Shown here: positions 22,904 to 61,892 of the stretch, piece after piece
Layout of the letters: each line of letters starts with the position of its first letter
How positions within the stretch are numbered: the stretch's first letter is position 1
NCBI GenBank assembly: GCA_964530335.1
Contig: CAZGYG010000003.1
Span: 23,792-87,791 of the forward strand
Origin: an uncultured Rhodospirillaceae bacterium
Lineage (GTDB): Bacteria > Pseudomonadota > Alphaproteobacteria > SP197
Reading direction: 5' to 3'
Length of the DNA: 64,000 bases
Made by a program: the position numbers and the translations under genes
The notes under the pieces: generated by a model
What the model was told of the DNA's origin: nothing
The model's database searches: none
Seen by the model: the letters and a program-made list of their open reading frames with translations, nothing else

Positions 22904-22907
22904 GGGA

Positions 22908-24134: not shown

Positions 24135-24144
24135 CGGGCGGCTG

Positions 24145-25371: not shown

Positions 25372-25544
25372 CTTCGCGCCTCCCCTCCCCGAAAAAGGCA
25401 CGCCGGCGGGGGACTATGCCACAGGGCTGGGCGGCGGGGCGAGTCTACCCGGGCGGGTCCCCGACCGGCCCCCAAGGCCCACTGTACCCCAGCGAAGCCC
25501 TGGGTTAAGGTGCCGAACCTTGCCGCGATGGCCGGTCGGGAGCC

Positions 25545-28208: not shown

Positions 28209-28237
28209 CCGCGACAGAACGTGAAGGAGACCTGACC

Positions 28238-31408: not shown

Positions 31409-31413
31409 GGGCT

Positions 31414-32184: not shown

Positions 32185-32216
32185 GGGCGGGTCTCGGTCA
32201 TGACGATGCCCACAGA

Positions 32217-33416: not shown

Positions 33417-33420
33417 GCCC

Positions 33421-34476
33421 TCAGCCTTCGGCGTGGACCAGGATCGCGCCGCCGACGCTGGCGAACACCAGGGCGGGCACCCAGGCCGCGAGCAGCGCGG
33501 GCAGCGCGCCGGCCTCGGCCAGGACCTGCACCAGGCCGTCGGCCACCAGATAACCGAACGCGATCGCGCCGCCGAACAGGAGGCCGCGCAGCGCGCCGGC
33601 GCGCCCGCGCACGCCGCGCGCGACCGGCGCCGCGATCAGGATCATCAGCGGCACCGCGAAGGGCGCGGCGAACTTCTCGTGCCATTGCACCCGGTAGAAC
33701 GTGCGCGTGCGCGGGCCGAGCCGGGTCGCGGCGATGAGCTCGGCGAGCTCGGCCAGGCCGTAGGCCTCGGCCGGTTGCGCCAGGCCGGCGAAGTCGTCGG
33801 GCACGGCGCTGGTTGGCCAGGCGAGGCGCGCCGCGCGCGTCACGTCGCCGTCGGCCGTGACCCGCACCGCGTCGTGCAGCACCCAGCCGGCGGCGTGCTC
33901 GGCCGCGCGGGCGTCGGTGCGCGCGATGACCGCGCCGCTGGCGTCGCGCTCGATCACCAGTGGGGCGTTGAGCCAGGCGCCGTCGGGCGCGACGCCCGCG
34001 AAACTCACGATACCGTCCTTGAGCCGCACCCAGACGCGGTCCTGGTCGTCGTCGGGCTCCGCCGTGCGCTCGAGCCAGACGCGCAGCGCCCGGTCGGCCG
34101 GCGGCGCTACCAGCTCGCCCAGGGCGAAATGACCGAGCGCGATGACCAGCGCCACCGGCATCAGCCCGGCGAGCAGGCGGTAGTACGAACGGCCCGCGGC
34201 CTTCGCCGCGACGACCTCGAAGCTGGACCCCAGCCGGGCGAGCGCCAGCAGCGCGCCGACCAGCGCCGCGATCGGCACGAGTTGGAGCACGATCAGCGGC
34301 AGGCGGAACCCGGCGTAGGTCGCGACCGCGCCGAGGCCGCCGTCGCCGCGCGCCGCCATGTCGGTCGCGTTCTCGAGCAGATCGAGCAGCTCGACGACGC
34401 CCGCGAAGCCGACCAGCGCGACGACGAACCGGCCGGCGAACAGGCGCGCCACGTAGCGGTCCAGCCGGCCGGTCAC
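33421..34476 (-). CDS. lptG: LPS export ABC permease LptG (YjgP/YjgQ family)
   Basis: GTG start (VTGRLDRYVARLF...) in GTGA overlap with the lptF stop; typical LptG N-terminus. Confidence 0.8.
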   Translation of the reverse strand: MTGRLDRYVARLFAGRFVVALVGFAGVVELLDLLENATDMAARGDGGLGAVATYAGFRLPLIVLQLVPIAALVGALLALARLGSSFEVVAAKAAGRSYYRLLAGLMPVALVIALGHFALGELVAPPADRALRVWLERTAEPDDDQDRVWVRLKDGIVSFAGVAPDGAWLNAPLVIERDASGAVIARTDARAAEHAAGWVLHDAVRVTADGDVTRAARLAWPTSAVPDDFAGLAQPAEAYGLAELAELIAATRLGPRTRTFYRVQWHEKFAAPFAVPLMILIAAPVARGVRGRAGALRGLLFGGAIAFGYLVADGLVQVLAEAGALPALLAAWVPALVFASVGGAILVHAEG

Positions 34477-35660
34477 GCGCCCTCCAGCCCCGGTCGGGCG
34501 CGGCCGAACCGCGCGGCGACGCGGCGCCCGGCGCCGTCGAGCCCGTCGAGCACGGCGTCCAGCGGGGTCGCGCCCGGCCGCCGCGCGACACGCGCGCTGA
34601 GCCACAGCCCGAAGGCGCCGAACGCGGCGAACGGCAGCCACAGGGCCGGTCCGGCGGCGACGTAGCCGAGGTCGGCCAGGCTTTCGCCGAACTGGAGCAC
34701 ATGGTGATAGATCAGCAGCACCAGGACGGCCGCCACCAGCCCGGCGCCCTGGCGCGCGCGCTTCGTCGCCAGGCCGAACGGCGCCGCGACGAACGGCAGC
34801 AGGATCAGCGAGACCGCGCGCACCAGGCGGGCATGGAGTTCGGCGCGCACGCGCTGGCCCTCGTCGCCGCCGTCGCCGCGCCGCGCCCACAGCTCGCCCA
34901 GCGTCAACTCACGCTCGCCCTCGCCGCGCAGCCGGAACGGGGCCAGCGCACCGGCGACGTCGAGCGCCACGTCGAGGCTGTCGAAGCGCAGCACCGCCGG
35001 GTCCTCGACCCCGGGGCCGGAACGGATCTCGACGCCGTCGCTCAGGTGCAGCACCAGGCCTTCGCCGTTCTCGGCGCGCGCCAGCCGGCCGGACCGCGCG
35101 CCGGTGGTCAGCCCGCCCGCTTCGTCGCGCCGGTCGATGACGATGCCGCCAAGCTCGTTCGCCGCGGCATCGACGCGCTCGGCCATCAGCGTCAACGTGC
35201 CGTCCGAGATGAACGCGCCCGGTTCGAGCGAGGCGTCCCACGCGGCGTTGGTCACCACGTAGACGACCGAGCGATAGGCGTAGCGGCTGTGCGGCTGCAA
35301 CCAGCCGAGCAGCGCCAGGCTGGCGACGGCGAGCACGGCGGCGAACGCGACCAGCGGCGCGATCAGCCGGGGGAACCCGACGCCCGCGGCGAACGCCGCG
35401 TCGAGCTCGCTCTGGGCCGCGAGCCGGCTGGTCATCGCGAAGACCGCCAGGAAGAACGCCGCCGGCAGCGCCATGCCCATGTAGTGCGGCACCAGATTGG
35501 CGATCATGCGCAGCACCAGCGTCAACGGCCCGCCCTTGTTGGCGAGCAAGTCCAAGAGCCTCAGCAGCCGTTCCAGGAGCAGCGCGGCGAGCACCACCCC
35601 AATGCCGAGCACCAGGGGCCTCAAGGTCTCGATCAGGACGTATCGGTCGAGCACGCGCAT
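34473..35660 (-). CDS. lptF: LPS export ABC permease LptF (YjgP/YjgQ family)
   Basis: MRVLDRYVLIETLRPLVLGIGVVLAALLL... canonical LptF N-terminus; 395 aa. Confidence 0.8.
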   Translation of the reverse strand: MRVLDRYVLIETLRPLVLGIGVVLAALLLERLLRLLDLLANKGGPLTLVLRMIANLVPHYMGMALPAAFFLAVFAMTSRLAAQSELDAAFAAGVGFPRLIAPLVAFAAVLAVASLALLGWLQPHSRYAYRSVVYVVTNAAWDASLEPGAFISDGTLTLMAERVDAAANELGGIVIDRRDEAGGLTTGARSGRLARAENGEGLVLHLSDGVEIRSGPGVEDPAVLRFDSLDVALDVAGALAPFRLRGEGERELTLGELWARRGDGGDEGQRVRAELHARLVRAVSLILLPFVAAPFGLATKRARQGAGLVAAVLVLLIYHHVLQFGESLADLGYVAAGPALWLPFAAFGAFGLWLSARVARRPGATPLDAVLDGLDGAGRRVAARFGRARPGLEGA

Positions 35661-35681
35661 CGCAAAGACGGGAATCGCGGC

Positions 35682-36125
35682 TCAGGTCCGGCCGGGCCAG
35701 ACCCGGCCGATCGCCTCGACCAGGGCGGGCACCAGGGTATCCGGCACGGTCATCGGCCTGGTCGGATCGGGCGGGCGTGGCCACGCCGCGTCCTCGAACG
35801 ACTGCCCGGCGAATTCGCGCGCCGCCGCGTAGCGCGGGAAGACGTGGAAGTGGACGTCCGGGTCCACCATCATCAGCATCAGGTAGTTGATCCGGTCGTA
35901 AGCGAACAGGCCGTGGAGCGCCGCCTCGGCATCGCGCACCATGCCGCGCAATTCGAGGAACGCCTCGGAGCCGAGCGCGCCGAAGGCGCGCGCGGGCTCG
36001 GTCGAGACCAGGACCAGCGAGCCGAGCGTGACCTGCTGCGGCCGCACCAACGCGACCCAGCGCCGGGTCTCGGCCACCCGGTTCGCCGGATCGCCGAACT
36101 TGGTCATGGTCGCATTGGCCGCCAT
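35682..36125 (-). CDS. HIT-family (histidine triad) protein
   Basis: DVHFHVFPRY histidine-triad-like motif; 147 aa; start uncertain (alternative Met at residue 7). Confidence 0.55.
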   Translation of the reverse strand: MAANATMTKFGDPANRVAETRRWVALVRPQQVTLGSLVLVSTEPARAFGALGSEAFLELRGMVRDAEAALHGLFAYDRINYLMLMMVDPDVHFHVFPRYAAAREFAGQSFEDAAWPRPPDPTRPMTVPDTLVPALVEAIGRVWPGRT

Positions 36126-36162
36126 TCTGGTTCCCCGCCGGTCGAGGCCACGATAGTGGCGG

Positions 36163-37074
36163 CTAGGCGCCGACGCCAGCCGCGCCGACGCGGAGCTCGT
36201 AGTCGGCGATCTCGGCCAGGCGCGGGGTTTCGCCGTCGACCAGGGCGCGGGTGGTCACCCGGATGCGCCAGCCGGCACGTTCCGGCTCGATCCGATAGAG
36301 GTTCCACGCCGCGGCTTCGGCGTGGCGCACCGGCCGCGCCGAGCCCGAGGGTACGCCGATCACCGGGGCATGGCCCGCCCCCGTCGGGAAGCGGCCGAAC
36401 CCGGAGGTGTGCGTGTGGCCGTGCAGGATCAGTTCGACCCCGGCGCGCGCCACCGCCTGGGCGAACGGCGCCATGTCGATCAGGCTCTTGCGCCGGGGTC
36501 CGGCCGGCAGTGGCGGGTGGTGGATCAGCATCACCCGGCAAAGCCCTTCGCGCCCCAGCTGGCCGAGCAGGCGCTCGGTCGCCGCAATCTGCTCGGGGCC
36601 GACGCGGCCGCCGGCGCTGCGCCACGGCATCGGCGCCGCCGTGCTGACGCCGATGAGCGCGACGCGCCCGCGCACCCGGAGCGTCGGGAAACGTGCGTCG
36701 CCGTCGTCGCCGGCCATGAACGCGCGCCAGTGCTCCAGAGTTTCGGCCGGATCGATGGCGACGTAGTGATCGTGGTTGCCTGGCACGACCGTGACCTCGG
36801 CCGGCGCCCCGAGGCTCTCGAGCCAGCGCGCGGCCAGACGGAATTCCTCCGGCAGCGAGATGTTGCACAGGTCGCCGGTGAGGGCGATGTGGTCCGGCGC
36901 CCGCGCCTTGAGGTCGGCGACCAGCGCGGCCAGCACCTCGGGCCGATGGATGTACCGCCGGCGGCGCAGCCAGTTGAGCGCGCCGAGCGCGCGCTTGGAA
37001 GCGAGCAGCCTGGGCGGCGGCCACGGCAGCGGCAGATGCGGGTCCGTCAGGTGGGCCAGCGCGAACGGGGTCAT
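36163..37074 (-). CDS. Metallophosphoesterase (calcineurin-like phosphoesterase)
   Basis: HLTDPH, TGDL, GNHD, HHPP, GHTH motif series. Confidence 0.8.
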   Translation of the reverse strand: MTPFALAHLTDPHLPLPWPPPRLLASKRALGALNWLRRRRYIHRPEVLAALVADLKARAPDHIALTGDLCNISLPEEFRLAARWLESLGAPAEVTVVPGNHDHYVAIDPAETLEHWRAFMAGDDGDARFPTLRVRGRVALIGVSTAAPMPWRSAGGRVGPEQIAATERLLGQLGREGLCRVMLIHHPPLPAGPRRKSLIDMAPFAQAVARAGVELILHGHTHTSGFGRFPTGAGHAPVIGVPSGSARPVRHAEAAAWNLYRIEPERAGWRIRVTTRALVDGETPRLAEIADYELRVGAAGVGA

Positions 37075-37168
37075 GGCGGCGGGAAGTCCGGGCTTCGCGG
37101 AAAACGCCCGCGGAGTGTATCAAAGGAGCGTCGCGGGCGTCGCGGCGAAGGGCGGCCGGCAAGGAGCG

Positions 37169-38326
37169 ATGGCGGAACTCGACACGGAACGCGCGATGCC
37201 GGTTACGGCGGCCGTGGTGGTCGGCGACCACGGCGTCGCGCCGTTCGGGGTGACGCCGGCCGAGCGCCTGGTCCGCGCGCTCCGGCGGGCGGGGGTCGCG
37301 GCGATCGCGCGCCATCCCGAATCTCCGCCGCCGGCGGACCGGATCGTCGTGGTGCGCGCCGATCATCTCTACGACGAGGCGATCGTGCGCGCGCTCGTGG
37401 CGCGCGACGGCGTGCTGCTGGTCGATGGCAAGGGGGCCGCGCTCGCCGCCACCGTGGCGGCGGCGGATGCCCCGGCGCTGGCCGCGGCGCTGGCCGCCGG
37501 CCAGAGGGTGCCGGACGGGCTTCGGCACCTGACCGCGACCGACGCGGGCGATCTGGCCCCGGCGTACCGCGATGCCCTGCGCAAGCGGGCCCAACCGCTG
37601 CTCGTCGCGCTCGACGGCACGACGCGGCGCGCGGCCGAGCGGCGGCTGTTCGACGACGCCTACAAGGGCGTCACCGACATCGTCACCAAGTACCTGTGGC
37701 CGTGGCCCGCGTTCCATGCGACGCGGCTCGCCGCCGCGCTCGGCGTCAGCGCCAACCAGGTGACCTGGGCGAGCCTTGCGTTCGTGCTCGCCGCGCTGGT
37801 GCTGTTCCGCGACGGGCTGTACCTGGCCGGGCTCGGCTGCGCCTGGGCCATGTGCCTCCTCGACACCGTCGACGGCAAGCTCGCGCGCGTCACCCTCGCC
37901 TCCAGCCGGTTCGGCAACGCGCTCGACCACGGCATCGATCTGGTGCATCCGCCGTTCTGGTACCTGGCGTGGGCCGCGGCGCTCGAGGACGCCGGCTTCG
38001 CGGTGCGCGAGCTCACCCTCGCCGTGGTCGCGGGCTATGTCGCCGGGCGCTTGCAGGAAGGCCTGTTCCTGTGGCGGTTCGGCATCGAGATGCACGTCTG
38101 GCGCCGGTTCGATTCGCGCTTCAGGCTTATCACCGCGCGGCGCAACCCGAACCTCGTGCTGCTGAGCATCGGCGCGCTCGCCGGTCGGCCCGAGCTCGGT
38201 TTCGCCGCCGTGGCCCTGTGGACAGTGGCCACGTTCGGCTTGCACTTGGTGCGCATCGGCCAGGCGCTGATCGCGGGCCGGCGGCCCGGGGGCGTGCGTT
38301 CGTGGCTCGCCGAACCGGGCACATGA
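37169..38326 (+). CDS. CDP-alcohol phosphatidyltransferase family protein with N-terminal extra domain (paralog B)
   Basis: LDTVDGKLARVT...LDHGIDLVHPPFWYLAWA; ATG preceded by AAGGAG; paralogous to 32217..33416. Confidence 0.7.
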   Translation: MAELDTERAMPVTAAVVVGDHGVAPFGVTPAERLVRALRRAGVAAIARHPESPPPADRIVVVRADHLYDEAIVRALVARDGVLLVDGKGAALAATVAAADAPALAAALAAGQRVPDGLRHLTATDAGDLAPAYRDALRKRAQPLLVALDGTTRRAAERRLFDDAYKGVTDIVTKYLWPWPAFHATRLAAALGVSANQVTWASLAFVLAALVLFRDGLYLAGLGCAWAMCLLDTVDGKLARVTLASSRFGNALDHGIDLVHPPFWYLAWAAALEDAGFAVRELTLAVVAGYVAGRLQEGLFLWRFGIEMHVWRRFDSRFRLITARRNPNLVLLSIGALAGRPELGFAAVALWTVATFGLHLVRIGQALIAGRRPGGVRSWLAEPGT

Positions 38327-39258
38327 CCCGCGTCGCCGTCGTCACCAATCCGCGCAGCCGCCGCAACCGGCGTCACGGTCCCGGCGTCGGGCGCCCGGCC
38401 ATCGAGCGCGCGGGCGCGCTCCAGGTAACGATGGGGCGGGATCATGACCTGGGCGCGGCGTTCGCCGAATTCGCCGCCGCCGGGGTCGGACTGGTCGTGA
38501 TCGACGGCGGCGACGGCACGGTCCGCGCGGCGCTCGCCGCGGCGTTTGCTCAGCCGGGCTTCGTTCCGCGCTTCGCCGCGCTTGGCTCGGGCACCACCAA
38601 CATGATCGCCGCCGACGTCGGGCCGCGTGGCGACCGCGCCGCCGCGTTCGACCGGCTGGTCGCGCTTGGCGGCAGTCTCGATCGCCATACCCTGTGGCGG
38701 AACCCGATTCGGCTCACGGGCGCCAGGGATGGCGTGCCGCACTACGGCTTCTTCTTCGGCGCCGGGGCGCTGGCCTGGGGCACGCGCCTGACCCGGCGCC
38801 GCATTCAACGCGGCCCGCTGGCCAGCGTGGCCGGCACCGCGATCGGCATCGCGGCGACCGCGGGGCTGCTCGCGCTCGGCCTCGGGCGCCCAGGCGTCGA
38901 ACTCGCCGTCGGCTACGACGACGGTCCCGTCGTCGCTGGCCGGCGCACCCTGTTGCTCGTGTCGACGCTCGAACGTCTCGTCGGCGGGATGCATCCGTTC
39001 TGGGGCGACGGCGACGGCGCGCTTAAGGTGCTCGACATCGCCGCGCCGTGCCGCCGGTTTGCCTGCGCCGCGCCGGCGCTGGTGCGCGGTCGGCCCAGCC
39101 CGTGGCTCGCCGCGGCGGGCTATCGCAGCCGTCGCGCCCACCGGCTCGAGCTCGAGCTCGCCGAGGACGCAGTGTTCGACGGCGAGTGGATCGTCCCCAA
39201 GCCCGGCGAGCGGCTGGTGCTCGACGCGGCCCCGGCGGTCGGGTTCGTGCGGCCATGA
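38323..39258 (+). CDS. Diacylglycerol-kinase catalytic-domain lipid kinase (YegS/ceramide-kinase-like)
   Basis: VTNPRSRRN...VIDGGDGTV DAGK_cat motifs; ATGA overlap with the upstream stop. Confidence 0.8.
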   Translation: MTRVAVVTNPRSRRNRRHGPGVGRPAIERAGALQVTMGRDHDLGAAFAEFAAAGVGLVVIDGGDGTVRAALAAAFAQPGFVPRFAALGSGTTNMIAADVGPRGDRAAAFDRLVALGGSLDRHTLWRNPIRLTGARDGVPHYGFFFGAGALAWGTRLTRRRIQRGPLASVAGTAIGIAATAGLLALGLGRPGVELAVGYDDGPVVAGRRTLLLVSTLERLVGGMHPFWGDGDGALKVLDIAAPCRRFACAAPALVRGRPSPWLAAAGYRSRRAHRLELELAEDAVFDGEWIVPKPGERLVLDAAPAVGFVRP

Positions 39259-40214
39259 CCGGCGACCCGCTCGACCGGCTGGTCGCGCTGGTCGCGCCGG
39301 AATCCCGGGCGACCGTGCCGGCGGAGCTCGGCGTCGTCGTCGCGGCGCTGCGTGCCCGCTTCGGTCCGGCCGTGGCGGCGGTGCTTTATTACGGTTCGTG
39401 CCTGCGGCTGGGCACGCTCGATGGCGTGATCGACGTCTACGTGCTGATCGATGACGTCGCGCCCGCGCCCCTGCGGCGGCGGGCGATGGGCGGTGCGATC
39501 CTGGCCTTGGCGTGCCGGCTCCTGCCGCCCAACGTCTACCACCTGTCGGTCGATGGGCCGCGCACGCTTGCCGTCAAGGCGGCGGTGATGTCGCTCGCGG
39601 GCTTCGCGCGGGGCCTCGAGGTAACGGCTTTCGTGCCGGCGCTCTGGGCGCGCTTCGCCCAGCCGGCCGTGGCGGTCTACGCCCGCGACGAGGCGATCGC
39701 GGCATCGCTCGATCGTTTGCGCGCCCGGGCCGTCGCCACCGCGGCGTGGCACGGCGCCCATCTGGCGCCTGCCCGCGCGGAGCCCTTGGAGCCGTGGCGC
39801 CGCGTGTTCCGCGCGACCTACGGCTGCGAGTTGCGCGCCGAGGCTGTCGACCGGGCCGACGCGGTGGTCGAGGCGGCGGCCCTGCGCTACGCCGAGCTGA
39901 CGCGCCCCGCGCTCGCCGCCGCCGGGATCGCCTGGACCGAGGGGACGGGTGCGCTCGAACTCGCGGTAGGCGCCGGTGCGCGTCGCCGCGCGCGGCTGGC
40001 CTGGGCGCTGCGCCGCCCCGCCGGCAAGCTGCTGAGTCTGCTCAGGTTGGCCAAGGCCGCATTCACGTTCGAGGGTGGCGCCGACTACCTGGCGTGGAAG
40101 ATCGAGCGTCATGCCGGCGTGCGGCCCGCGCTCTCGCCCTGGCAGCGGCGTCACCCGCTGCTTGCGCTGCCTTTGCTGGCCTGGCGGCTTTGGCGCCAGG
40201 GCGTTGTGCGCTAG
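39255..40214 (+). CDS. Hypothetical protein, possibly nucleotidyltransferase-fold (YYGS...IDVYVLIDD)
   Basis: ATGA overlap with the kinase stop; 319 aa; no firm family; 3' end is convergent on spt. Confidence 0.4.
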   Translation: MTGDPLDRLVALVAPESRATVPAELGVVVAALRARFGPAVAAVLYYGSCLRLGTLDGVIDVYVLIDDVAPAPLRRRAMGGAILALACRLLPPNVYHLSVDGPRTLAVKAAVMSLAGFARGLEVTAFVPALWARFAQPAVAVYARDEAIAASLDRLRARAVATAAWHGAHLAPARAEPLEPWRRVFRATYGCELRAEAVDRADAVVEAAALRYAELTRPALAAAGIAWTEGTGALELAVGAGARRRARLAWALRRPAGKLLSLLRLAKAAFTFEGGADYLAWKIERHAGVRPALSPWQRRHPLLALPLLAWRLWRQGVVR

Positions 40215-41428
40215 CCCGCGGCGACGGCGAGGCTCGGCTTGAGCACGCCGAGCGCGACGCCGGTGTCGTTGAACACGTCGACCATGCGCGCGATCTGCTT
40301 GCGCGTGTGGGCGGCCGAGATGCTGCAGCGCAGCAGGGGATTGCCCCCCGGGGTCGCCGGCGGCAAGGCCAGGTTCACGTACACGCCGTTCTCGAGCAGC
40401 ATGTTCCAGAACCTGATGGCGATCTCGACGTCGGGCAGCTTGACCGCGACCACCGGGCTGACCTGCGGGCCGAGCTCGTAGCCGAGCCCGCCGAGCCCGT
40501 CGTACAGCGCGCGGGCGTTGCCGGCGAGCCGGGTGCGCAGTTCGGGCCGGCGTTCGACGATCTCGAGCGCCTTGAGCACCGAGGCCATGATGCTCGGCGG
40601 CAGCGAGGCCGTGAACATGTACGGCCGGCACGCGACGCGCAGCACGTCGAAGTCCTCGTGATCCGAAACGCAGAAGCCGCCCACCGCGCCCAGGCTCTTG
40701 CTGAACGTGCCGACGACGTAATCGACGTCCGCCTCGCAGCCCGCCTCCTCGGCCAGGCCGCGGCCCAGGCGCCCGAGCACGCCCATCGAATGGGCCTCGT
40801 CGACCATCAGGTAGGCGCCGTGGCGGCGCTTGATCGCGACGAACTCGGCCAGCGGCGCGCGGTCGCCGACCATGCTGTAGATGCCCTCGACGATGATCAG
40901 GCGCGCCTGGCCGTCCGCGGGAAGCCGGCTCAGGCGCCGGTCCAGGTCGACCGGGTCGTTGTGGCGGAACCGCGTCACCTTGGCCCCGCCCAGCCGGCAG
41001 CCGTCGTAGATGCTGGCGTGGCAATCGGCGTCGATGACTAGGTGGTCGTTCGGCCCGGCGAGCGTCGAGATCATGCCCAGGTTGGCCTGATAGCCGGTCG
41101 AGAACACCATGCAATGCCGCCGTCCGTAGTAGCGCGCGAGTTCCAGTTCGAGCTGGCAATGGGCGGTGTACGAGCCGTTGGCGATGCGCGAACCGGTGGT
41201 GCCGGTGCCTTCATGGCTGAGCGACGCGATGGCGGCCTCGATGCACTCCGGATCGAAGGTCAGGCCCAGGTAGTTGTTGGTGCCGACCAGCAGGGTACGC
41301 CGACCCTCGATGATCGCCTCGGTCGGCGAGATCACCTTGTCGATCGATACCTTGAACGGGTTGCGGCCACGCTCGGCGAGCGCCCGGTAGGTCGCCGCCA
41401 GTGGCGCGAACTTCGCGTACAGGTCCAT
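40211..41428 (-). CDS. spt: Serine palmitoyltransferase (alpha-oxoamine synthase family, PLP-dependent)
   Basis: GTFSKSLG PLP-lysine motif; 405 aa. The context (dedicated ACP, SDR, acyl-ACP synthetase) argues for Spt rather than BioF/Kbl. Confidence 0.75.
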   Translation of the reverse strand: MDLYAKFAPLAATYRALAERGRNPFKVSIDKVISPTEAIIEGRRTLLVGTNNYLGLTFDPECIEAAIASLSHEGTGTTGSRIANGSYTAHCQLELELARYYGRRHCMVFSTGYQANLGMISTLAGPNDHLVIDADCHASIYDGCRLGGAKVTRFRHNDPVDLDRRLSRLPADGQARLIIVEGIYSMVGDRAPLAEFVAIKRRHGAYLMVDEAHSMGVLGRLGRGLAEEAGCEADVDYVVGTFSKSLGAVGGFCVSDHEDFDVLRVACRPYMFTASLPPSIMASVLKALEIVERRPELRTRLAGNARALYDGLGGLGYELGPQVSPVVAVKLPDVEIAIRFWNMLLENGVYVNLALPPATPGGNPLLRCSISAAHTRKQIARMVDVFNDTGVALGVLKPSLAVAAG

Positions 41429-41431
41429 GGC

Positions 41432-41686
41432 TCAGGCGGCTCCCTTCTTGATCTTCGCGATGGCCAGCGCGAGGTCGCGCACGGTCTCGATCTCTGGCAA
41501 GTGGTTGAGCGAAATCGACACGTCGAACTGGTCCTCGAGCGTCATCAGCAGGTCCATTTCGGCCAGCGAATCCAGGTTGAGGTCGCGCTTCAGCAGCGTG
41601 CCCTCGTTGACCGCGAACCGACCCTTGGTCGCCGCGGCCAGGATGTCGCTGATCGTCCCGACGATCTCGCCGTAATTCTCGGTCAT
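41432..41686 (-). CDS. Acyl carrier protein (sphingolipid-pathway-dedicated type)
   Basis: 84 aa; LDSLAEMDLLM phosphopantetheine-attachment Ser motif; 3 nt upstream of spt. Confidence 0.8.
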   Translation of the reverse strand: MTENYGEIVGTISDILAAATKGRFAVNEGTLLKRDLNLDSLAEMDLLMTLEDQFDVSISLNHLPEIETVRDLALAIAKIKKGAA

Positions 41687-41964
41687 CGAGCCGCGAGAAT
41701 CCCTCGTCGCCAGGGCTATTGAAGCGTCCTGCAAACTGCACCCGCCCGTTACGAAATCACCATCGCAATCAAGCAGATGATCGGCCTTGCGACAAGCCGA
41801 CACGAAGGCGGCCGCAAGGCGGGCTCCGGCCGGCGCGAAGGCGGTGATTAGCCCGAAAAACGTCGAAATGTCAATACTTTGACGCCACCGGGCCGGGCCA
41901 GGTGCCGGATGAGCCACGATCAATTTGTGTTAACGCATGTTTCAGCCGGCCGGGCCGGGCCCCC

Positions 41965-42885
41965 TCAGGCGCCGATCCAGCCCCGTTCACGGTACCAGGC
42001 GACGGTCTCGGCGAGGCCTTGCTCGAGCCCGATGCTCGGCCGCCAGCCGTCGGGCCAGGGCGCCTGGCGCCGCCAGTCCGGGTGGACGAGCTCGCGTGCC
42101 TTGCCGGGGGAGAAGAACGCCGCCCGGCCGGAGGCCCGGGCGAGCGCCCCGGCCGCGTGACCGGCCACCAGGAACGCGGGCGCCGGCAGCGCCATGGTGC
42201 GCGCCGAACGCCCCAGGGCGGCGCCGGCCAGGGCCACGACCTCGGCCCAGAGGTAGCCGCCTTCGCGGCCGTCGTCGAGCTCGCGGACCCCGGTTTCGCG
42301 CGTGGCCAGCGCCGCCGCGATCGCGCGGGCGACGTCGGCGACGTGGACGAAGCTGACCCGGGCCTCGCGCCGCACCGGCACGATGCCGAGCCCGACGGCC
42401 CTGAACAGGACGAGCATGGCGGTGTCCCATGGGCCGTAGACGGCGGTCGGGCGCAGCACCAGCCAGTCGCCGCCCGCGGCCGCGACGGCCTGTTCGCCGG
42501 CCAACTTGCTCGCGGCGTAGTCGGAAAGCCCGGGCTCGCGCGCGGCGATCGAGGACACCAGCACGGCGCGGGGCACGTTCGCCGCGCGCGCCGCCACGGC
42601 CACGCCCCGCGCGCCCGCCTCGTTGGCGGCCCGGAAGCCCTGGCGGTCGCGGGCCCGCACCAGGCCGGCCAGGTGGACCACGGCGTCGGCACCCGCCACC
42701 AGATCGGCCAGCGCCGCGGCATCACCCAGATCGCCGGGCACCGCCTGATACCGCCGCCCGGCCCACAGCGGATGGGTTGGCGATCGTCGGGCGAGCAGGC
42801 GCACGGTCCACCCGGAGTCCATCAACAGGCGCGCGACGTGGCCGCCGATGAATCCGGTGCCCCCGGTCAGGGCCACCGTCGCCAT
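41965..42885 (-). CDS. NAD-dependent epimerase/dehydratase family SDR (ceramide-reductase CerR-like)
   Basis: MATVALTGGTGFIGGHV Rossmann motif; YxxxK (YAASK); 306 aa. Confidence 0.8.
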   Translation of the reverse strand: MATVALTGGTGFIGGHVARLLMDSGWTVRLLARRSPTHPLWAGRRYQAVPGDLGDAAALADLVAGADAVVHLAGLVRARDRQGFRAANEAGARGVAVAARAANVPRAVLVSSIAAREPGLSDYAASKLAGEQAVAAAGGDWLVLRPTAVYGPWDTAMLVLFRAVGLGIVPVRREARVSFVHVADVARAIAAALATRETGVRELDDGREGGYLWAEVVALAGAALGRSARTMALPAPAFLVAGHAAGALARASGRAAFFSPGKARELVHPDWRRQAPWPDGWRPSIGLEQGLAETVAWYRERGWIGA

Positions 42886-42886
42886 G

Positions 42887-44623
42887 TCAGGATGCGAGCG
42901 AGCTCGCGGGGTCGAAGTCGCCGGCCAGATACCGCGCCTTGGCCCTGCTGCGGCTGAGCTTGCCCGACGAGGTCTGGGGCAGGCTTTTCGGCGGCACCAG
43001 AACGACGGTGCAGTCGATGCCGACGATCTCGTTGACCGCGCCCGCCACGTCGCGCGCGAGCTCGGCGCGCAACTGCGGATCGGCGCCGCGGCACTGCACC
43101 AGCACGACGACGCGCTCGCCGTCCTCGCCCTCGACCGAGAAAGCGGCCGCGTCGCCGCTGCGCACGGCGGGCACGTGCTCCGCCGCCCATTCCAGGTCCT
43201 GCGGCCAAAGGTTGCGGCCGTTGACCAGGATCAGGTCCTTGACCCGCCCGGTGACCACGATCTGGCCGTCGAGCCAATAGCCGAGATCGCCGGTGTCGAG
43301 CCAGCCGTCCGGGCCGAGCACCCTTCGGGTGTCCTCCGGCGCGTTGAAGTAGCACGACATCACGCTGGCGCCCCGGGTGTAGATGCGGCCTACCCGGCGC
43401 TCGCCCTGCGCACGGCCGTCGTCGTCGCGGACCTCGATGGCGTGGCCGGGCATCGGCACGCCGCACAGCACGAACTCGCGCGCCCGGCCGGAGGCCGCAT
43501 CGGCGGTCGGGCGCGCCAGCGCCTCGTTCGCCATGGCGTCGAGGTCGACCCGGTCCGTGCGCATGCCTTGGCCGAGCGGGTTGAAGCTGACGGCGAGCCC
43601 GGTTTCGGCCATGCCGTAGCTCGGCACGAAGGCGCCGGGCTGGAAGCCGCGCGGGCCGAATGCCTCGATGAAGCGGCTGAGCACCCTGGGCCGGATCATG
43701 TCGCCGCCGATGCCGGCCCCGCGCCACGTACGCAGGTCGAGGCCCTCGGTCGAGGCGGTTTCGGCGCGCCGGGCGCACAGCTCGTAGCCGAAGGTCGGGC
43801 TGAACGACAACGTGCTGCCGTTGCGCGTCAGGAGCGACAGCCACAGCAGCGGGCGGCGCGCGAAGTCGCGGGTGGCGAGGTAATCGACCGACATCTGGCA
43901 GCCGACCGGCGTCAGCAGGAAGCCGACCAGCCCCATGTCGTGGTAGAGCGGCAGCCATGAGGTGCAGCGATCGCCCGGCACGATCACCAGCCCGTGGTCG
44001 GCGATCGCCCGGATGTTGTGCAGCACCGCGCGGTGGGTCATAGCGACCCCGAGCGGGAACCGGGTCGAGCCCGACGAGTATTGCAGGTAGCACAGCCCGT
44101 TGGGGTCGGGCGCCGGCAGATCCGCCTCGGCATCGGGCAGGGCATCGAGCGCCTTGGCATCGCCGACGAAGCTCATGGCCCGCCCGGCGCACGCCTCCTC
44201 CAGGTACGGCAGCAGCTCCGTCGGGGCGAACGCCGCGGCAGCGTCGCAGCCCGCGATCTGGCGCCGGACCTGGTCGATGTAGGCGTCGCGCCCGCCGAAC
44301 GACTGCGGCAGGGGCAGGGGCGTCGGCACCAGGCCCGCGTACTGGGCGCCGAAGAAGACGCGCATGAAATCGCCGTTCGAATCGGCCAGGATCGCGATCC
44401 GCGCGCCGGGCGGCACACCGGCGCGCACGAACCGGCGCGCGTTGGCAAGCGCCTGCTCGCGCAGTTCGCGGTACGCGAGCCGCTCGACCAGATCGCCGCG
44501 CGCCGAGTAGAAATTGAGCCCGGTCTCGCCCTGTGCGGCGTAATCGAGCGCCTCGGGAATCGTGGCGAACGCGCAGCGACGATAGGGCAGCCGCGGATTC
44601 GAAGTGGGCGTAGCTTCGGGCAT
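42887..44623 (-). CDS. Fatty acyl-AMP ligase / acyl-ACP synthetase (adenylate-forming enzyme)
   Basis: YSSGSTRFPLGV AMP-binding core; FAAL-type architecture. Start taken at the ATG of MPEATPTSNP... so that it does not overlap the divergent gene. Confidence 0.75.
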   Translation of the reverse strand: MPEATPTSNPRLPYRRCAFATIPEALDYAAQGETGLNFYSARGDLVERLAYRELREQALANARRFVRAGVPPGARIAILADSNGDFMRVFFGAQYAGLVPTPLPLPQSFGGRDAYIDQVRRQIAGCDAAAAFAPTELLPYLEEACAGRAMSFVGDAKALDALPDAEADLPAPDPNGLCYLQYSSGSTRFPLGVAMTHRAVLHNIRAIADHGLVIVPGDRCTSWLPLYHDMGLVGFLLTPVGCQMSVDYLATRDFARRPLLWLSLLTRNGSTLSFSPTFGYELCARRAETASTEGLDLRTWRGAGIGGDMIRPRVLSRFIEAFGPRGFQPGAFVPSYGMAETGLAVSFNPLGQGMRTDRVDLDAMANEALARPTADAASGRAREFVLCGVPMPGHAIEVRDDDGRAQGERRVGRIYTRGASVMSCYFNAPEDTRRVLGPDGWLDTGDLGYWLDGQIVVTGRVKDLILVNGRNLWPQDLEWAAEHVPAVRSGDAAAFSVEGEDGERVVVLVQCRGADPQLRAELARDVAGAVNEIVGIDCTVVLVPPKSLPQTSSGKLSRSRAKARYLAGDFDPASSLAS

Positions 44624-44655
44624 GGTCTCGCCGGCGGAACGCATCCGGCACCGGT

Positions 44656-45741
44656 ATGGAAGGACAAAGGCTGTCGGTAGCAAAAAACCCGCAGGGCGGC
44701 AAGGACGAGGGTGGCAGGGACAGCGCCCAATCGGAGGCGGACGTATGGGCGCTCGTCGGCGGCAAGCCGGGGGACGATGCCCAGGTGCTCGCGCTCGCGG
44801 CCGCGCTCGGCCGGGCGTTCGCGGTCAAGCGGCTGGGCTTTCGCGGTCTCTACCGGGTGCCGAATCTGCTGGCTTTCGCGCCCTTCGGCCTCGATCGCGC
44901 ACGCTCGGATGCGCTGGCGCCGCCGTGGCCCCGGCTGGTCATCGCCGTTGGCCGCCGCGCCGTGCCGGTCGCGCGCTGGATCCGCCGGCAGTCGGGCGGG
45001 CGCACGCGCCTGGTCCACCTGGGCCGGCCGCGCGCCCCCTACCGCTGGTTCGACCTGATCGTGACGACGCCGCAGTACGGCGTGCCCGCGCGCGCCAACG
45101 TGCTGACCATTCCCTTGCCGCTCGGCGCCGGCGCGAGCGGCAAACCGTCGTTCGACGACCTGCCCCGGCCGCGCATCGGCGTGCTGATCGGTGGCGCGAG
45201 CGGCGCCTGGCGGCTGGCCGAGCCCGCGCGCCTGGGCGAAGGGCTCGGCCGGCTCGCCCGTCGGCACTCGGGCTCGCTCCTGGTCACCACCAGCCGGCGT
45301 ACCGGCCATGAGGCCGAGGCGCTGATCGCCGCGCTCGACGCGCCGGCGCGCGTCCATCGCTTCGGCCAGGGCGCCAACCCCTACGGCGCGATCCTGGCGG
45401 CGGCGGACGCCTTCGTGGTCACCGCCGACAGCGCCTCGATGATGGCCGACGCCGCCGCGACCGGGCACGCGCTGCTGCTGGCGCCGGCGGCGTATCGCCC
45501 GACGCTCGGCCAGCGGCTTACGGCGGCGGCGGCAAGCGTGCCCGGGTATGATTGGGCCGTGGACCTCGGTCTGATCACGCGGCCGCGCGCGCTCGGCGCC
45601 ATCGCCGAAATCCTGGTGGCGGCCGGTCACGCCCGCTGGTTCAGCGCGTCCGACGACCTCGCCCCGCCGGCGGTGGCCTACGACGAACCGTCGGTCAAGG
45701 ACCGGGCGGTCGCCCGGGTCGAAGCCTTGCTGACGCCATGA
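44656..45741 (+). CDS. ELM1/DUF1022-family protein (predicted glycosyltransferase-like/nucleotide-sugar-binding)
   Basis: VWALVGGKPGDDAQVLALAAALG N-terminal motif typical of ELM1-family proteins; family assigned from memory. Confidence 0.55.
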   Translation: MEGQRLSVAKNPQGGKDEGGRDSAQSEADVWALVGGKPGDDAQVLALAAALGRAFAVKRLGFRGLYRVPNLLAFAPFGLDRARSDALAPPWPRLVIAVGRRAVPVARWIRRQSGGRTRLVHLGRPRAPYRWFDLIVTTPQYGVPARANVLTIPLPLGAGASGKPSFDDLPRPRIGVLIGGASGAWRLAEPARLGEGLGRLARRHSGSLLVTTSRRTGHEAEALIAALDAPARVHRFGQGANPYGAILAAADAFVVTADSASMMADAAATGHALLLAPAAYRPTLGQRLTAAAASVPGYDWAVDLGLITRPRALGAIAEILVAAGHARWFSASDDLAPPAVAYDEPSVKDRAVARVEALLTP

Positions 45742-46457
45742 CCTGGCAGGGCGAGAACGTCCTGGTCGTCGTGCCGGCGCGCGGCGGCAGCAAGGGGATT
45801 CCGGGCAAGAACCTGGCGAAGCTCGGCGGGCTCAGCCTGGTCGGGCACGCGGCGCGCTCAGCGCTCGCGCTCGCCTGGGCCGACCGCGTCGTGCTCAGCA
45901 CCGACGATCCGGCGATCGCCGCGGAAGGGCGGGCGCACGGGCTGGACGTGCCGTTCCCGCGCCCCGCCGAACTCGCCACCGACACGGCGGCGGCGATCGA
46001 CGTCTGGCGCCACGCCTGGCTCGCCGCCGAGGCGCACTACGCCATGGGCTTCGCTTACGCCGTCTACTTGCAGCCGACGACGCCGCTGCGCGGACCCGAC
46101 GAGGTGACGGCGACGCTCCGGGCCATGGTCGATGGCGGCCACAAGGCGGCGGCGACGGTCAGCCGCGTGCCCGGCCACTTCGCGCCGCACAAGGTCATGA
46201 CCATGGACAGGTCCGGACGGCTCGGCTTCTTCTTGCCCGAAGGGGCCACGATTGTCGCGCGCCAGCAGGCGCCGGCGACCTGGTACCGCAACGGGCTCGC
46301 GTACGCCGCCCGGCGCGCGACGATCGTGGATGAACGCACGATCGTCGAGAACGATTGCGTCGGCGTCGTCATCGAACGCGCGCTCGCCAACATCGACGAA
46401 CCGGCCGACCTGATCCTCGCCGAGGCGCTGTGGCGCGCCGGGCACGACCGCCGGTGA
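45738..46457 (+). CDS. CMP-sugar cytidylyltransferase (acylneuraminate/Kdo cytidylyltransferase family)
   Basis: VVPARGGSKGIPGKN signature; ATGA overlap with the upstream gene. Confidence 0.8.
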   Translation: MTWQGENVLVVVPARGGSKGIPGKNLAKLGGLSLVGHAARSALALAWADRVVLSTDDPAIAAEGRAHGLDVPFPRPAELATDTAAAIDVWRHAWLAAEAHYAMGFAYAVYLQPTTPLRGPDEVTATLRAMVDGGHKAAATVSRVPGHFAPHKVMTMDRSGRLGFFLPEGATIVARQQAPATWYRNGLAYAARRATIVDERTIVENDCVGVVIERALANIDEPADLILAEALWRAGHDRR

Positions 46458-46527
46458 CGGAGCTGTCGCGGCGCATGCGGGGTCGTGCGCGGCCTGCTAG
46501 AACGGGCACACCCCGTCCACGCCCGCG

Positions 46528-47472
46528 ATGACCATTCCCGCGATCCCGTCGTCCGACCTGGCAACCTTGGCGCTGTCGCCCGCCGAGGCGCTGGAGGCGA
46601 TTCGGCCGTTCGTCATTGAGCGTTACGTGCCCGGGGATGCGCGCTTCGCCGCCCGCCGCGCGCGGCTGCTGCGCAAGTGGCGGCTGAGGCTCGCCAAGCG
46701 TCGGTTGCTCGGCTGGCTGCCCAAGGGCAAGCGCACCCAGGGCTATGTCGAGCAGAGCTACAACCGGACCTTCGCCGCCCGGCCGTGGCCCGAAACCTTG
46801 CCCCCGGTCGCGCCGGAAACGAAGCCGACGGCGGCCGAGTTCCAGGGCGAAGGGCTGCTGGTCCGGCGCTACGGCGTCGGTCGCGTCCACCTGCTGCTGA
46901 TGGCGCGCCTAATCCGGGCGCTCGGCGCCCGCACGGTGCTCGAGGTCGGCGCGGGCACGGGCATCAATCTGTTCGTGCTGGCCGCCCTGGTGCCCGAGGC
47001 GTCGTTCACCGGCATCGAGCTGACCGAGACCGGCGTGGCCCAGGCCCGGACGGTGGTCAAGGCCGACCGTTTCCCCGAACGTCTCGCCCAATACTGCCCT
47101 GCGCCGGTCGCCGACGCCGAGGCGTATCGCCGCGTCGAAATGCGGCGCGGCAACGCGCTCGACCTGCCGTTCGACAAGGCGTCGTTCGACCTGGTGTTCA
47201 CCCGCCAGGCGCTCGAGCAGATGGAGGTGATCCGGGCCCCAGCGCTCAAGGAGATCGCGCGCGTCGCCGCTCGCCATACGCTGCTGGTCGAGCCGTTCGC
47301 CGACGCCAACCGCGACCCCTTGCGCCGCTGCTACGTCGCGGCCAAGGACTACTTCTCGCTTCCCGTCGACGGGCTCCCGGACTTCGGCATCGCGCCGATC
47401 CACCGCGATCGCGCGTTTCCGCAGAACGTCTGCCTGGGCATCGAGCTCGTCGTCGGGCGGACGGGGGTCTGA
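46528..47472 (+). CDS. Class I SAM-dependent methyltransferase
   Basis: VLEVGAGTGIN SAM-binding motif. Confidence 0.75.
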   Translation: MTIPAIPSSDLATLALSPAEALEAIRPFVIERYVPGDARFAARRARLLRKWRLRLAKRRLLGWLPKGKRTQGYVEQSYNRTFAARPWPETLPPVAPETKPTAAEFQGEGLLVRRYGVGRVHLLLMARLIRALGARTVLEVGAGTGINLFVLAALVPEASFTGIELTETGVAQARTVVKADRFPERLAQYCPAPVADAEAYRRVEMRRGNALDLPFDKASFDLVFTRQALEQMEVIRAPALKEIARVAARHTLLVEPFADANRDPLRRCYVAAKDYFSLPVDGLPDFGIAPIHRDRAFPQNVCLGIELVVGRTGV

Positions 47473-47485
47473 CGTCTCCCGCGCC

Positions 47486-48853
47486 ATGGCGCCGCCCCTG
47501 CTGATCCCGGCCGAGACCCAGAACCGCGAGTTCGACGCCAAGCTGCTGCTCGCTTGCGTCGCGGCCGAGCGCGGCTTCCCGGCGATCGTCGGCTCGCGCA
47601 TCCACATGCACCGGTCGATCCTGGCGCTGCCGCGCGGCATCTATCTGGCCAAGGATGTGCGCCGGCCGAGCCTGCGCATGTTCCGCATCCTGCGCCGCCT
47701 GGGCCACGCCATCGTGGCGTGCGACGAAGAGGGGCTGATCTTCATTTCGCCGGCCCTGTTCCACCGCCGCCGGGTCCACGCCGAGGCGCTCGGGGCGATC
47801 GAGCTCTATCTGGCGTGGGGCGCGATGGGCGCCGAGCTGGTGCGGACCGCTCCCGGTTACGCGGGCGTGCCGATTCTCGAGACCGGCAACCCGCGCACCG
47901 ATCTGTTGCGCCCGGAGCTGCGCGCCTTCTTCGCCGCCGAGGTCGCGGCGCTCGAGGCCCGCTACGGCGAGTTCATCCTGGTCGATTCGAACTTCGGGCG
48001 GATCAACCACTTCAATCCGGCCCTCAGCCTCACGCCGAGCGCGCCGGGCGCCCTGGCGCTGCGCAACCTCGAACCCGACGACCCGCCGATCGAGGCGTGG
48101 CGGTTCCGCGAGACGGTGATGACGGCCATGACGGCCATGATCCCGGTGCTCGCCCGCGCCTTCGCCGGGCTGCGCATCGTCGTGCGCCCCCACCCGTCGG
48201 AGAACCACGAGCGTTGGCGGCAGGCCGCCGCGGGCCTCGCCAACGTCGAGGTCATCCACGAGGGCACCGTCGCGCCGTGGCTGATGGCGGCGTCGTGCGC
48301 GGTCCACAACGGCTGCACCACCGCGATCGAAGGCCGGCTGGTCGGAACGCCGGTGGTCGCCTACCGGCCCGTCACCTCGCCCGATTACGAGGTCGAGCTG
48401 CCGAACCAGGTCGGCGCCACCGCGGTCGATCCGGACGGCTTGGTCGCGACGGTCCGCGCGCTCATCGGCGGCGGGCGTCCGCTGCCCTTGAAGGCGGCCG
48501 AGCGCGCGACGCTGACCCCTTACATCGCCGCGCTCGACGGGCCATTGGCCGCCGAGCGCATGGTCGACGCCCTGGTTGAGTTCGCGCGCCGCCGGCCGTT
48601 GCCGCCGCCGCCGCTCGGCGACCTGCTCGTCGGCGGCCTCGACGCGACCGTGCGCGCGCTCGGCAAGCGGTTGAACGCGCGGCTGCCCGGCCACAAGGAC
48701 AGCGCCGCGTTCACCCGCCAGCGCTTTCCCGGCGTCGACCTGGCCGGCGTGGCGGCGCGCATCACGAGCTTCCGCGCCCTGCTCGGCCGCTTCGAGGGGA
48801 TCGCCGCCACGGAGATCACGACCAACGTGTTCCGCCTCGAGCGGCGCGCTTGA
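47486..48853 (+). CDS. Surface-carbohydrate/capsule biosynthesis protein (TIGR04396-like, glycosyltransferase-related)
   Basis: 455 aa; co-located with the CMP-sugar synthetase; weak family recognition only. Confidence 0.45.
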   Translation: MAPPLLIPAETQNREFDAKLLLACVAAERGFPAIVGSRIHMHRSILALPRGIYLAKDVRRPSLRMFRILRRLGHAIVACDEEGLIFISPALFHRRRVHAEALGAIELYLAWGAMGAELVRTAPGYAGVPILETGNPRTDLLRPELRAFFAAEVAALEARYGEFILVDSNFGRINHFNPALSLTPSAPGALALRNLEPDDPPIEAWRFRETVMTAMTAMIPVLARAFAGLRIVVRPHPSENHERWRQAAAGLANVEVIHEGTVAPWLMAASCAVHNGCTTAIEGRLVGTPVVAYRPVTSPDYEVELPNQVGATAVDPDGLVATVRALIGGGRPLPLKAAERATLTPYIAALDGPLAAERMVDALVEFARRRPLPPPPLGDLLVGGLDATVRALGKRLNARLPGHKDSAAFTRQRFPGVDLAGVAARITSFRALLGRFEGIAATEITTNVFRLERRA

Positions 48854-57672: not shown

Positions 57673-57687
57673 CTTGCCGGGCCGGAT

Positions 57688-58341: not shown

Positions 58342-58480
58342 GGGGGCCTCCGGTCCGTCGGTTCGACGCGAACGCGAGCCTAACATCTCACCGCCGCCGC
58401 CACTATCCCGACTTTGCAACCGTGCCGCCAAGCCGCACGTCGCACGACCGTGGTCGTGTTATTCTCGCGCTCCGCTGTAG

Positions 58481-60927: not shown

Positions 60928-60975
60928 CGTCGTAGTCGTCGCCCAGTCGTTGGCGTGTCGTTGCGCTGTCGTCGT

Positions 60976-61878: not shown

Positions 61879-61892
61879 CGGCCGGCGCAAGG

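Follow-up and report, generated by a model that had tools for sequence, protein, structure and literature searches.

Does the stretch of DNA analysed here, 64,000 nucleotides from an uncultured Rhodospirillaceae bacterium (the window), encode a pathway for anionic sphingolipids, and which known system would it belong to? An initial annotation had raised this question for seven genes, in which a ceramide operon faced a triplet resembling cpgABC. We found that window positions 29478-44644, together with an unlinked gene at 59572-60324, most probably represent the sphingolipid locus of Alphaproteobacteria that was originally defined in Caulobacter crescentus (CC_1152-CC_1165). The probability of this reading was estimated as roughly 0.85. 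The seven genes were only the middle part of a roughly 15-kb locus, and the unlinked gene, a CpgD homologue, was found 15 kb off.

Collinearity with Caulobacter carried this assignment. The cloning primers published for strain CB15 (PMC11324152, S4 Table) gave an exact 19-mer (oLOP455), with which the genome collection was scanned. A contig of a metagenome-assembled genome (MAG) named 'Caulobacter vibrioides' was recovered, which held aasR-cerR-acpR-spt and only the tail of cpgC. Another 19 matches occurred by chance in unrelated genomes and were disregarded. With the Spt of this contig as the query, we obtained a 21-kb Caulobacter reference locus (L023) of 18 called genes. Because its genes followed the published order from CC_1168 to CC_1152 and its gene ends matched the CB15 primers with 1-5 mismatches, it was a valid proxy. 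It belongs to a close Caulobacter species and is not CB15 itself.

BLAST against this reference showed that 14 consecutive window genes paired reciprocally with CC_1153-CC_1165, and both order and orientation were conserved. The expectation values (E) ranged from 1e-11, for an acyl carrier protein (ACP) of 84 amino acids (aa), to 0. The gene at 32217-33416 paired only partially, with CpgA. Chance was excluded, because 14 consecutive genes matched a collinear Caulobacter locus reciprocally. All seven genes of the initial annotation were among the pairs, at full length and with 33-61% identity.

Reading frames were selected by third-position GC and not by the length of open reading frames (ORFs), because the window has about 73% GC and plain ORF lists were full of spurious frames. 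Start codons were then fixed. The features were as follows, where CDP is cytidine diphosphate and DAGK is diacylglycerol kinase.

29478-30281, minus strand: CC_1153-like nucleotidyltransferase, 267 aa; NTP_transf_3 (PF12804); reciprocal match to Caulobacter CC_1153, 38% over 251 aa.
30278-31408, minus strand: bCerS-like ceramide synthase, 376 aa; reciprocal match to CC_1154/bCerS, 48.5% over 377 aa, E 3e-122; no Pfam match.
31414-32184, minus strand: fatty-acid hydroxylase family protein, 256 aa; Pfam FA_hydroxylase, 75 bits; extra relative to the Caulobacter locus.
32217-33416, minus strand: second CDP-alcohol phosphotransferase, 399 aa; PF01066; extra relative to the Caulobacter locus; sister clade to CpgA.
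33421-34476, minus strand: LptG2-like permease, 351 aa; PF03739; 32% to Caulobacter CC_1155.
34473-35660, minus strand: LptF2-like permease, 395 aa; PF03739; 42% to Caulobacter CC_1156.
35682-36125, minus strand: CC_1157-like HIT-like small protein, 147 aa; 46% over 140 aa to CC_1157; DVHFHV in both.
36163-37074, minus strand: CC_1158-like metallophosphoesterase, 303 aa; Pfam Metallophos; 43% full length to CC_1158; DPH, GD and GNH motifs.
37169-38326, plus strand: CpgA orthologue, 385 aa, with an N-terminal cytoplasmic domain; CDP-OH_P_transf (PF01066), 36.8 bits; possible later start at 37196.
38323-39258, plus strand: CpgB orthologue, 311 aa; lipid (ceramide) kinase of the DAGK family; DAGK_cat with 35 bits; GGDG motif at residues 62-65.
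39255-40214, plus strand: CpgC orthologue, predicted nucleotidyltransferase with a modelled Tam41 fold, 319 aa; 36% over 310 aa to CpgC.
40211-41428, minus strand: serine palmitoyltransferase (SPT), 405 aa; NF047599; GTFSKS at residues 240-245.
41432-41686, minus strand: AcpR-type dedicated ACP, 84 aa; PP-binding; DSL at residues 39-41, the serine being residue 40.
41687-41964, minus strand: non-coding cerR-acpR spacer, 278 bp; GC about 0.64; coding signal in no frame.
41965-42885, minus strand: CerR-type NAD(P)-dependent reductase of the short-chain dehydrogenase/reductase (SDR) type, 306 aa; Epimerase (PF01370); GGTGFIG and YAASK; 46% full length to Caulobacter CerR.
42887-44644, minus strand: AasR-type acyl-ACP synthetase or fatty acyl-AMP ligase (FAAL), 585 aa; NF006624; alternative ATG start at 44623.
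59572-60324, minus strand: CpgD homologue of the CTP:phosphoglycerate cytidylyltransferase type, 250 aa; tblastn match to CC_1152; NTP_transferase and NTP_transf_3.

The layout of the middle part agreed largely with the initial annotation. The seven genes were located where it had placed them, with the motifs, sizes, spacer and overlaps that it had described, and Pfam and NCBIfam confirmed each domain it had named. Its end coordinate, 44623, corresponds to the alternative ATG of the FAAL gene. The triplet of CDP-alcohol phosphotransferase, DAGK-family kinase and hypothetical protein, now the CpgA, CpgB and CpgC orthologues, overlapped and converged on the SPT gene, as had been stated, and both internal junctions were ATGA overlaps. 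The cpgC and spt genes had a palindromic stop pair, CTAG at 40211-40214, in common. The spacer between the ACP and SDR genes was likewise AT-richer and non-coding. One part had to be corrected. The alpha-oxoamine synthase (AOS), which depends on pyridoxal phosphate and carries GTFSKS, adjoined the 84-aa ACP gene, but it had been placed upstream of that gene. On the coding strand this order was reversed: transcription on the minus strand would run FAAL-SDR-278-bp spacer-ACP-SPT, with the ACP gene upstream of the SPT gene and a 3-nt gap between them.

The ceramide core was examined with family models and solved structures. The SPT scored 663 bits on NF047599 (serine palmitoyltransferase, cutoff 500) and remained below the other NCBIfam cutoffs, with 323 vs 426 for bioF, 308 vs 460 for KBL, and ALAS and CqsA also below. 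Among solved enzymes, the S. wittichii SPT (2x8u) gave 480 bits and the S. paucimobilis SPT (2jg2) gave 440 bits, followed by the Sphingobacterium SPT with 288, KBL with 222 and BioF with about 180 or less. Identity to Caulobacter Spt was 61%, and the match was reciprocal. By sequence, the AOS is a bacterial serine palmitoyltransferase. The carrier protein was below all NCBIfam cutoffs for housekeeping ACPs (for example, 34.8 vs 70.45 for TIGR00517). It was 41% identical to Caulobacter AcpR and had a PP-binding domain with the phosphopantetheine serine in DSL. The AasR homologue reached 836 bits on NF006624 (fatty acyl-AMP ligase, cutoff 600) and matched Caulobacter AasR reciprocally with 52% over 568 aa. 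The CerR homologue showed 46% over 304 aa, and bCerS and CerR were each represented in the locus by a full-length orthologue. The reciprocal pairs of Spt, AcpR, CerR and AasR corroborated the earlier view that these four genes form the set known from Caulobacter.

The cerR-acpR spacer contained a 16-nt near-palindromic block, AACATGCGTTAACACA, at 41926-41941 on the minus strand. This block was identical in the closest relative, the Alphaproteobacteria MAG GCA_040905845 (L028), while the remainder of the spacer had diverged. It may serve as a site for a regulator or as a promoter of acpR-spt inside the operon. GTTACA-like elements were also seen in the cerR-acpR spacer of other loci. A scan of 36-46 kb for sigma-70 promoters and terminators gave results no better than shuffled sequence, and no Rfam family was detected anywhere in the window.

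For the head group, the triplet was compared with CpgA, CpgB and CpgC. All three genes gave full-length reciprocal best matches in identical order, which upheld the suggested likeness to cpgABC. The CpgA orthologue showed 49.7% identity over 360 aa (E 2e-107) and a complete CDP-alcohol phosphotransferase signature, DTVDGKLARVTLASSRFGNALDHGID, at residue 232. It grouped with Caulobacter CpgA and not with the paralogue clade in a small neighbour-joining tree, and its score on the NCBIfam model for phosphatidylinositol phosphate (PIP) synthase was 39.8, against a cutoff of 170. The CpgB orthologue showed 32.6% identity over its full length (E 2e-32, 112 bits), compared with only 13.8 bits to YegS. 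The GGDG motif was present and the eukaryotic CxxxCxxC was absent, and this agreed with the CpgB features taken from 10.1101/2023.05.01.538943, which covers CpgB function. The third gene, directly 3' of cpgB, matched Caulobacter CpgC (CCNA_01219) reciprocally with 36% over 310 aa (E 4e-47). Genetic work in Caulobacter ties cpgABC to ceramide head groups (PMC9393093). The ceramide reading of the initial annotation was thus supported, because the AOS was SPT-like and the triplet matched CpgA, CpgB and CpgC.

The CpgC orthologue matched no Pfam or NCBIfam model. At the sequence level, Pfam Tam41_Mmp37 was not found in it and was marginal (E 0.03) in 2 of 48 homologues. A profile of the CpgC family found no match among PDB sequences, and fold comparison alone succeeded. 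An AlphaFold2 (AF2) model of the protein had a mean confidence (pLDDT) of 93.6, and its top five Foldseek matches in the PDB were all Tam41, including 6ig2, 6ig4 and 7ecd, with E of 3e-8 to 6e-6. The Tam41-like domain (IPR015222) reported for CC_1161 was therefore seen at the fold level, not at the sequence level. The family has more than 2,600 homologues, and the nearest named ones came from Rhodospirillales-like taxa. The modelled fold supports the published suggestion that CpgC would activate ceramide-1-phosphate with a nucleotide.

The CpgD homologue matched Caulobacter CC_1152 with 52% identity over 235 aa (E 1e-71). CpgD is a CTP:phosphoglycerate cytidylyltransferase in Caulobacter (PMC12275187). 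No close relative was found among solved chains, where the best match was a generic nucleotidyl transferase with 59 bits. The genes around it (56944-63212) are unrelated and encode a GATase, a glutathione S-transferase (GST), an AhpC/2-oxoglutarate (2OG)-oxygenase fusion, an ArsR-type regulator, a PfkB kinase and a glutamine synthetase.

The two permeases were below the cutoffs of the canonical models. The LptG2-like protein gave 211.6 bits on TIGR04408 (cutoff 240) and the LptF2-like protein gave 208 bits on TIGR04407 (cutoff 230). The latter reached 232 bits with Caulobacter CC_1156, compared with 54 bits or less with solved canonical LptF. We class the pair as LptF2/LptG2-like and divergent from canonical LptF/G. 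A 2026 preprint gives genetic evidence that LptF2/G2 are needed for sphingolipid export in Caulobacter (10.64898/2026.04.12.717747).

A pathway was assembled from these assignments, with every step taken by orthology from the Caulobacter genes. AasR would charge AcpR, the dedicated carrier, with a fatty acid, and Spt would condense the acyl-AcpR with serine to 3-oxosphinganine. The N-acylation of this product by bCerS and the reduction of its 3-oxo group by CerR would give dihydroceramide, and the Scs7-like hydroxylase probably hydroxylates the ceramide. CpgB would convert ceramide to ceramide-1-phosphate. CpgC, with its modelled Tam41 fold, would most likely use CTP to activate ceramide-1-phosphate en route to ceramide phosphoglycerate (CPG). 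CpgD would produce CDP-glycerate, which CpgA would use to add a further phosphoglycerate. Assisting roles are predicted for the CC_1153-like nucleotidyltransferase, the metallophosphoesterase and the HIT-like protein. The second CDP-alcohol phosphotransferase would add one more phosphotransfer step than in Caulobacter. LptF2/LptG2 would pull the anionic lipid out of the inner membrane so that it can be delivered to the outer one. Catalytic motifs were present in the SPT, the ACP, CerR, CpgB, CpgA and the second transferase. The biochemistry available for Caulobacter covers the supply of acyl-AcpR, Spt, bCerS, CerR, CpgB as the ceramide kinase, and CpgD. Genetic evidence shows that CpgA, CpgD and CC_1153 are needed for the conversion of CPG to CPG2, and that CC_1158 contributes.

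Several points weighed against this reading. The identities of CpgB (33%) and CpgC (36%) to the Caulobacter proteins were modest, and the CpgD homologue was unlinked from the cluster. For CpgC, the support from Caulobacter is genetic and shows that it is needed for the conversion of ceramide-1-phosphate to CPG. The additional transferase and hydroxylase suggest that the end product may differ from the CPG2 of Caulobacter. Furthermore, LptC2 (CC_1168), CC_1167 and the CC_1166 flippase had no match of E 0.01 or better in a tblastn search of the whole window. These three genes are also reported missing from Nitrosomonas, Azotobacter and Pseudomonas luteola (PMC11324152), and according to 10.64898/2026.04.12.717747 LptC2 occurs only in Caulobacter.

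The two extra genes were then considered. The hydroxylase gene is located between the bCerS and LptG2 genes, and its product contains the His boxes HRFVLH, HFDHH and HLAHH. Its only matches among PDB sequences were to the yeast ceramide fatty-acid 2-hydroxylase Scs7 (E 1e-9). It was found at the equivalent place in five relative loci (L027-L031). The second transferase was 43% identical to the CpgA orthologue in the membrane domain only, and its identity to CpgA-clade members was just 28-37%. Its motif, D-x2-DG-x2-AR-x8-G-x3-D-x3-D, was intact at residue 248, and it formed a clade separate from CpgA in a small neighbour-joining tree. Many full-length homologues with 45-67% identity were found across many contigs. 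A recent duplication of cpgA was ruled out by this separate and widely conserved clade. The nearest named NCBIfam models were PIP and archaetidylinositol-phosphate synthases, all far below their cutoffs. An AF2 model (pLDDT 91) gave full-length Foldseek matches to IPCT-DIPPS (4mnd) and AF2299 (4o6n).

Further copies of the cluster were found in Rhodospirillaceae SYSU D60014, Aerophototrophica and a Sulfitobacter MAG, and also on two other contigs of MAG or metagenome origin. Both extra genes and an identical gene order were found in Rhodospirillaceae SYSU D60014 (GCA_003576685.1), Sulfitobacter sp. MAG (GCA_039976155.1) and a JGI metagenome contig (L029), and in these three loci the extra genes were positioned between LptG2 and bCerS. 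The hydroxylase occurred without the second transferase in Aerophototrophica crusticola and in the closest relative GCA_040905845, whose Spt was 81% identical. We therefore describe the window locus as a recurrent variant of the Caulobacter locus in Rhodospirillales and Rhodobacterales genomes, as judged by gene content and order. Our literature searches found neither a published description of this variant nor an experimental study of the SYSU D60014, Sulfitobacter or JGI loci. An Exo_endo_phos gene of the sphingomyelinase/phosphatase superfamily was observed between the enoyl-CoA hydratase and CC_1153-like genes in GCA_040905845 (L028, 480-1277) and in the JGI contig (L029, 1-239), and it was absent from the window.

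The second transferase might be related to a gap in the known pathway. Olea-Ozuna et al. 2024 proposed that, after nucleotide activation by CpgC, a 'so-far unknown' enzyme would join glycerate or 2-phosphoglycerate. By analogy with the CDP-diacylglycerol pathway, ceramide-1-phosphate could be converted to CDP-ceramide and then to ceramide phosphoglycerate. We raise the second transferase as a rather doubtful candidate for the enzyme joining glycerate or 2-phosphoglycerate to a CpgC-made CDP-ceramide, or else for one building a head group undescribed in bacteria. Caulobacter makes CPG without a second-transferase gene in its locus. No mention of CDP-ceramide was found in the literature searched.

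Three other explanations of the locus were weighed. If the AOS were of the BioF, KBL or CqsA type, the cluster would make a non-sphingoid amino lipid or a cofactor. Membership of the AOS superfamily and the sub-threshold matches to the bioF, KBL and CqsA models would fit this idea. It was effectively refuted, since only the SPT cutoff was passed, the best solved relatives were the sphingomonad SPTs, well above KBL and BioF, and the Spt orthologue stood beside orthologues of bCerS, CerR, AcpR and AasR. The initial annotation had named a grouping with BioF/KBL, or a triplet unlike CpgA/B/C, as outcomes that would overturn its reading, and neither was observed. The triplet might also act on glycerophospholipids, as a PgsA-like synthase, a YegS/DgkB-like kinase and a CDP-diacylglycerol synthase that lie beside the ceramide operon by chance. 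Pfam gave only the generic CDP-OH_P_transf and DAGK_cat domains, Caulobacter CpgB phosphorylates diacylglycerol in vitro (10.1101/2023.05.01.538943), and the nearest fold to CpgC was a CDP-diacylglycerol synthase. However, the triplet lay beside spt and converged on it in each of seven loci, which represented three or more alphaproteobacterial orders, the scores to YegS and to the PIP-synthase model were low, and the genetics cited above (PMC9393093) link the three genes to ceramide head groups. A glycerophospholipid function is thus very improbable.

An end product other than CPG2 deserved more weight. The ceramide core would be shared with Caulobacter, and the product could be, for example, a hydroxylated ceramide with a longer poly-phosphoglycerate chain, or one with another alcohol such as glycerol or inositol. 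This is possible, although we consider it unlikely. The separate clade of the second transferase, its intact catalytic signature, its full-length conservation and the inositol-phosphate type of its nearest named models, which it matched only far below their cutoffs, all point in this direction, as does the resemblance of the hydroxylase to Scs7. Genes for an Elm1-type glycosyltransferase and a CMP-sugar-synthetase-like protein also adjoin aasR, both here and in GCA_040905845. On the other hand, CpgA, CpgB, CpgC, CpgD and CC_1153, which are all genetically required for CPG/CPG2 in Caulobacter, have orthologues here, and no genes for the supply of inositol or glycerol-phosphate were seen in the cluster. 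Lipids of the CPG type are the default expectation, because each of these required genes has an orthologue in the window.

The surroundings of the locus were also inspected. A block on the plus strand (44785-48853) diverges from aasR and encodes a putative glycosyltransferase of the Mito_fiss_Elm1 type, a CTP_transf_3 cytidylyltransferase, a methyltransferase and a TIGR04396 surface-carbohydrate protein. The cytidylyltransferase was PseF-like with 99 bits, which is below the cutoff. In GCA_040905845, the Elm1 (53%) and cytidylyltransferase (81%) genes adjoin aasR as well. The Elm1/cytidylyltransferase genes may decorate the sphingolipid or lipopolysaccharide. The block was also tried as CC_1166/CC_1167, and BLAST gave no similarity. 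Next came an MsbA-like ABC exporter (48863-50578, minus strand), followed by a resistance-nodulation-division (RND) pump (51085-54255) and a membrane-fusion protein (54252-55307). The MsbA-like exporter could replace the absent CC_1166 flippase, though nothing ties it to the cluster.

Near the start of the window, four tandem Sulfotransfer_1 (PF00685) paralogues were found on the plus strand (345-4428; 345-1184, 1196-2032, 2044-2901 and 3583-4428). This array was broken by a 2OG-Fe(II) oxygenase (2898-3572), and it was an unusual run of eukaryote-type domains. A Lon-like protease of 793 aa (5931-8312, minus strand) combined a LonB-type AAA, a LonC helical domain and Lon_C, and an OmpR-type response regulator adjoined it at 8510-9199. 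The region 19326-28696 contained a glycosyltransferase run, with GT28-like genes (20056-21213 and 24145-25350), GT1 genes (21791-22903 and 22908-24134) and a histidine phosphatase. Then came an ABC exporter at 25752-28208, and at 28238-28696 a small cNMP-binding protein.

Caulobacter can live without lipid A thanks to its anionic sphingolipids, which polymyxin and colistin target in this organism. The spread and forms of this lipid system therefore bear on outer-membrane biology and on the antibiotic susceptibility of environmental Gram-negatives. With the window, a predicted complete system that has LptF2/G2 for export is seen in an uncultured, high-GC member of the Alphaproteobacteria that belongs to neither Caulobacterales nor Sphingomonadales. 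Together with the modelled Tam41 fold of CpgC, the variant offers a concrete candidate, open to testing, for the conversion of ceramide-1-phosphate into ceramide phosphoglycerate.

Finally, the locus was compared with known systems. The SPTs of S. wittichii and S. paucimobilis aligned with the window SPT over the full length, with the GTFSKS, DADxHAS, DEAH and LLRCS segments conserved. They differ in that the window SPT, like that of Caulobacter, has a dedicated ACP and an acyl-ACP synthetase as partner genes. The Tam41 CDP-diacylglycerol synthases (6ig2, 6ig4 and 7ecd) matched the CpgC model over 280-300 aligned columns, with a probability of 1.0 and a template modelling (TM) score of 0.5-0.58. 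Their identity was only 12-15%, and the substrate of the window protein is presumed to be ceramide-1-phosphate, not phosphatidic acid. The modelled second transferase had a nucleotidyltransferase-like N-domain and a six-helix transferase domain, as in IPCT-DIPPS and AF2299, with a TM score of 0.6-0.77. It differed in that the GxGxR nucleotide-binding signature was absent from its N-domain, and this domain is therefore probably not catalytic. In the three variant loci, CpgD was next to the cluster, unlike in the window, and identities were 31-75%.

The closest comparison was with Caulobacter CC_1152-CC_1168 (CCNA_01210-01226). The cpgC and spt genes overlap by 4 bp in the window and are 62 bp apart in Caulobacter, and the cerR-acpR spacer is 278 bp compared with 92 bp. 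CpgD is adjacent to the cluster in Caulobacter and 15 kb away here. The window lacks the DUF2141 gene of the Caulobacter locus, and it has the fatty-acid hydroxylase and the second CDP-alcohol phosphotransferase in addition. Identities between orthologues were 32% to 61%, and both have a CpgD homologue. Conservation of the system across alpha-, beta- and gammaproteobacteria has been reported, and the whole cluster has been described (PMC11324152). Because this conservation is already published, we assign the window locus to the known Caulobacter-type sphingolipid/CPG system and not to a new kind. The block of CC_1153-like, bCerS, LptG2, LptF2, HIT-like and Metallophos genes is common to both, and in both cpgABC diverges from the metallophosphoesterase side of this block and converges on spt-acpR-cerR-aasR.

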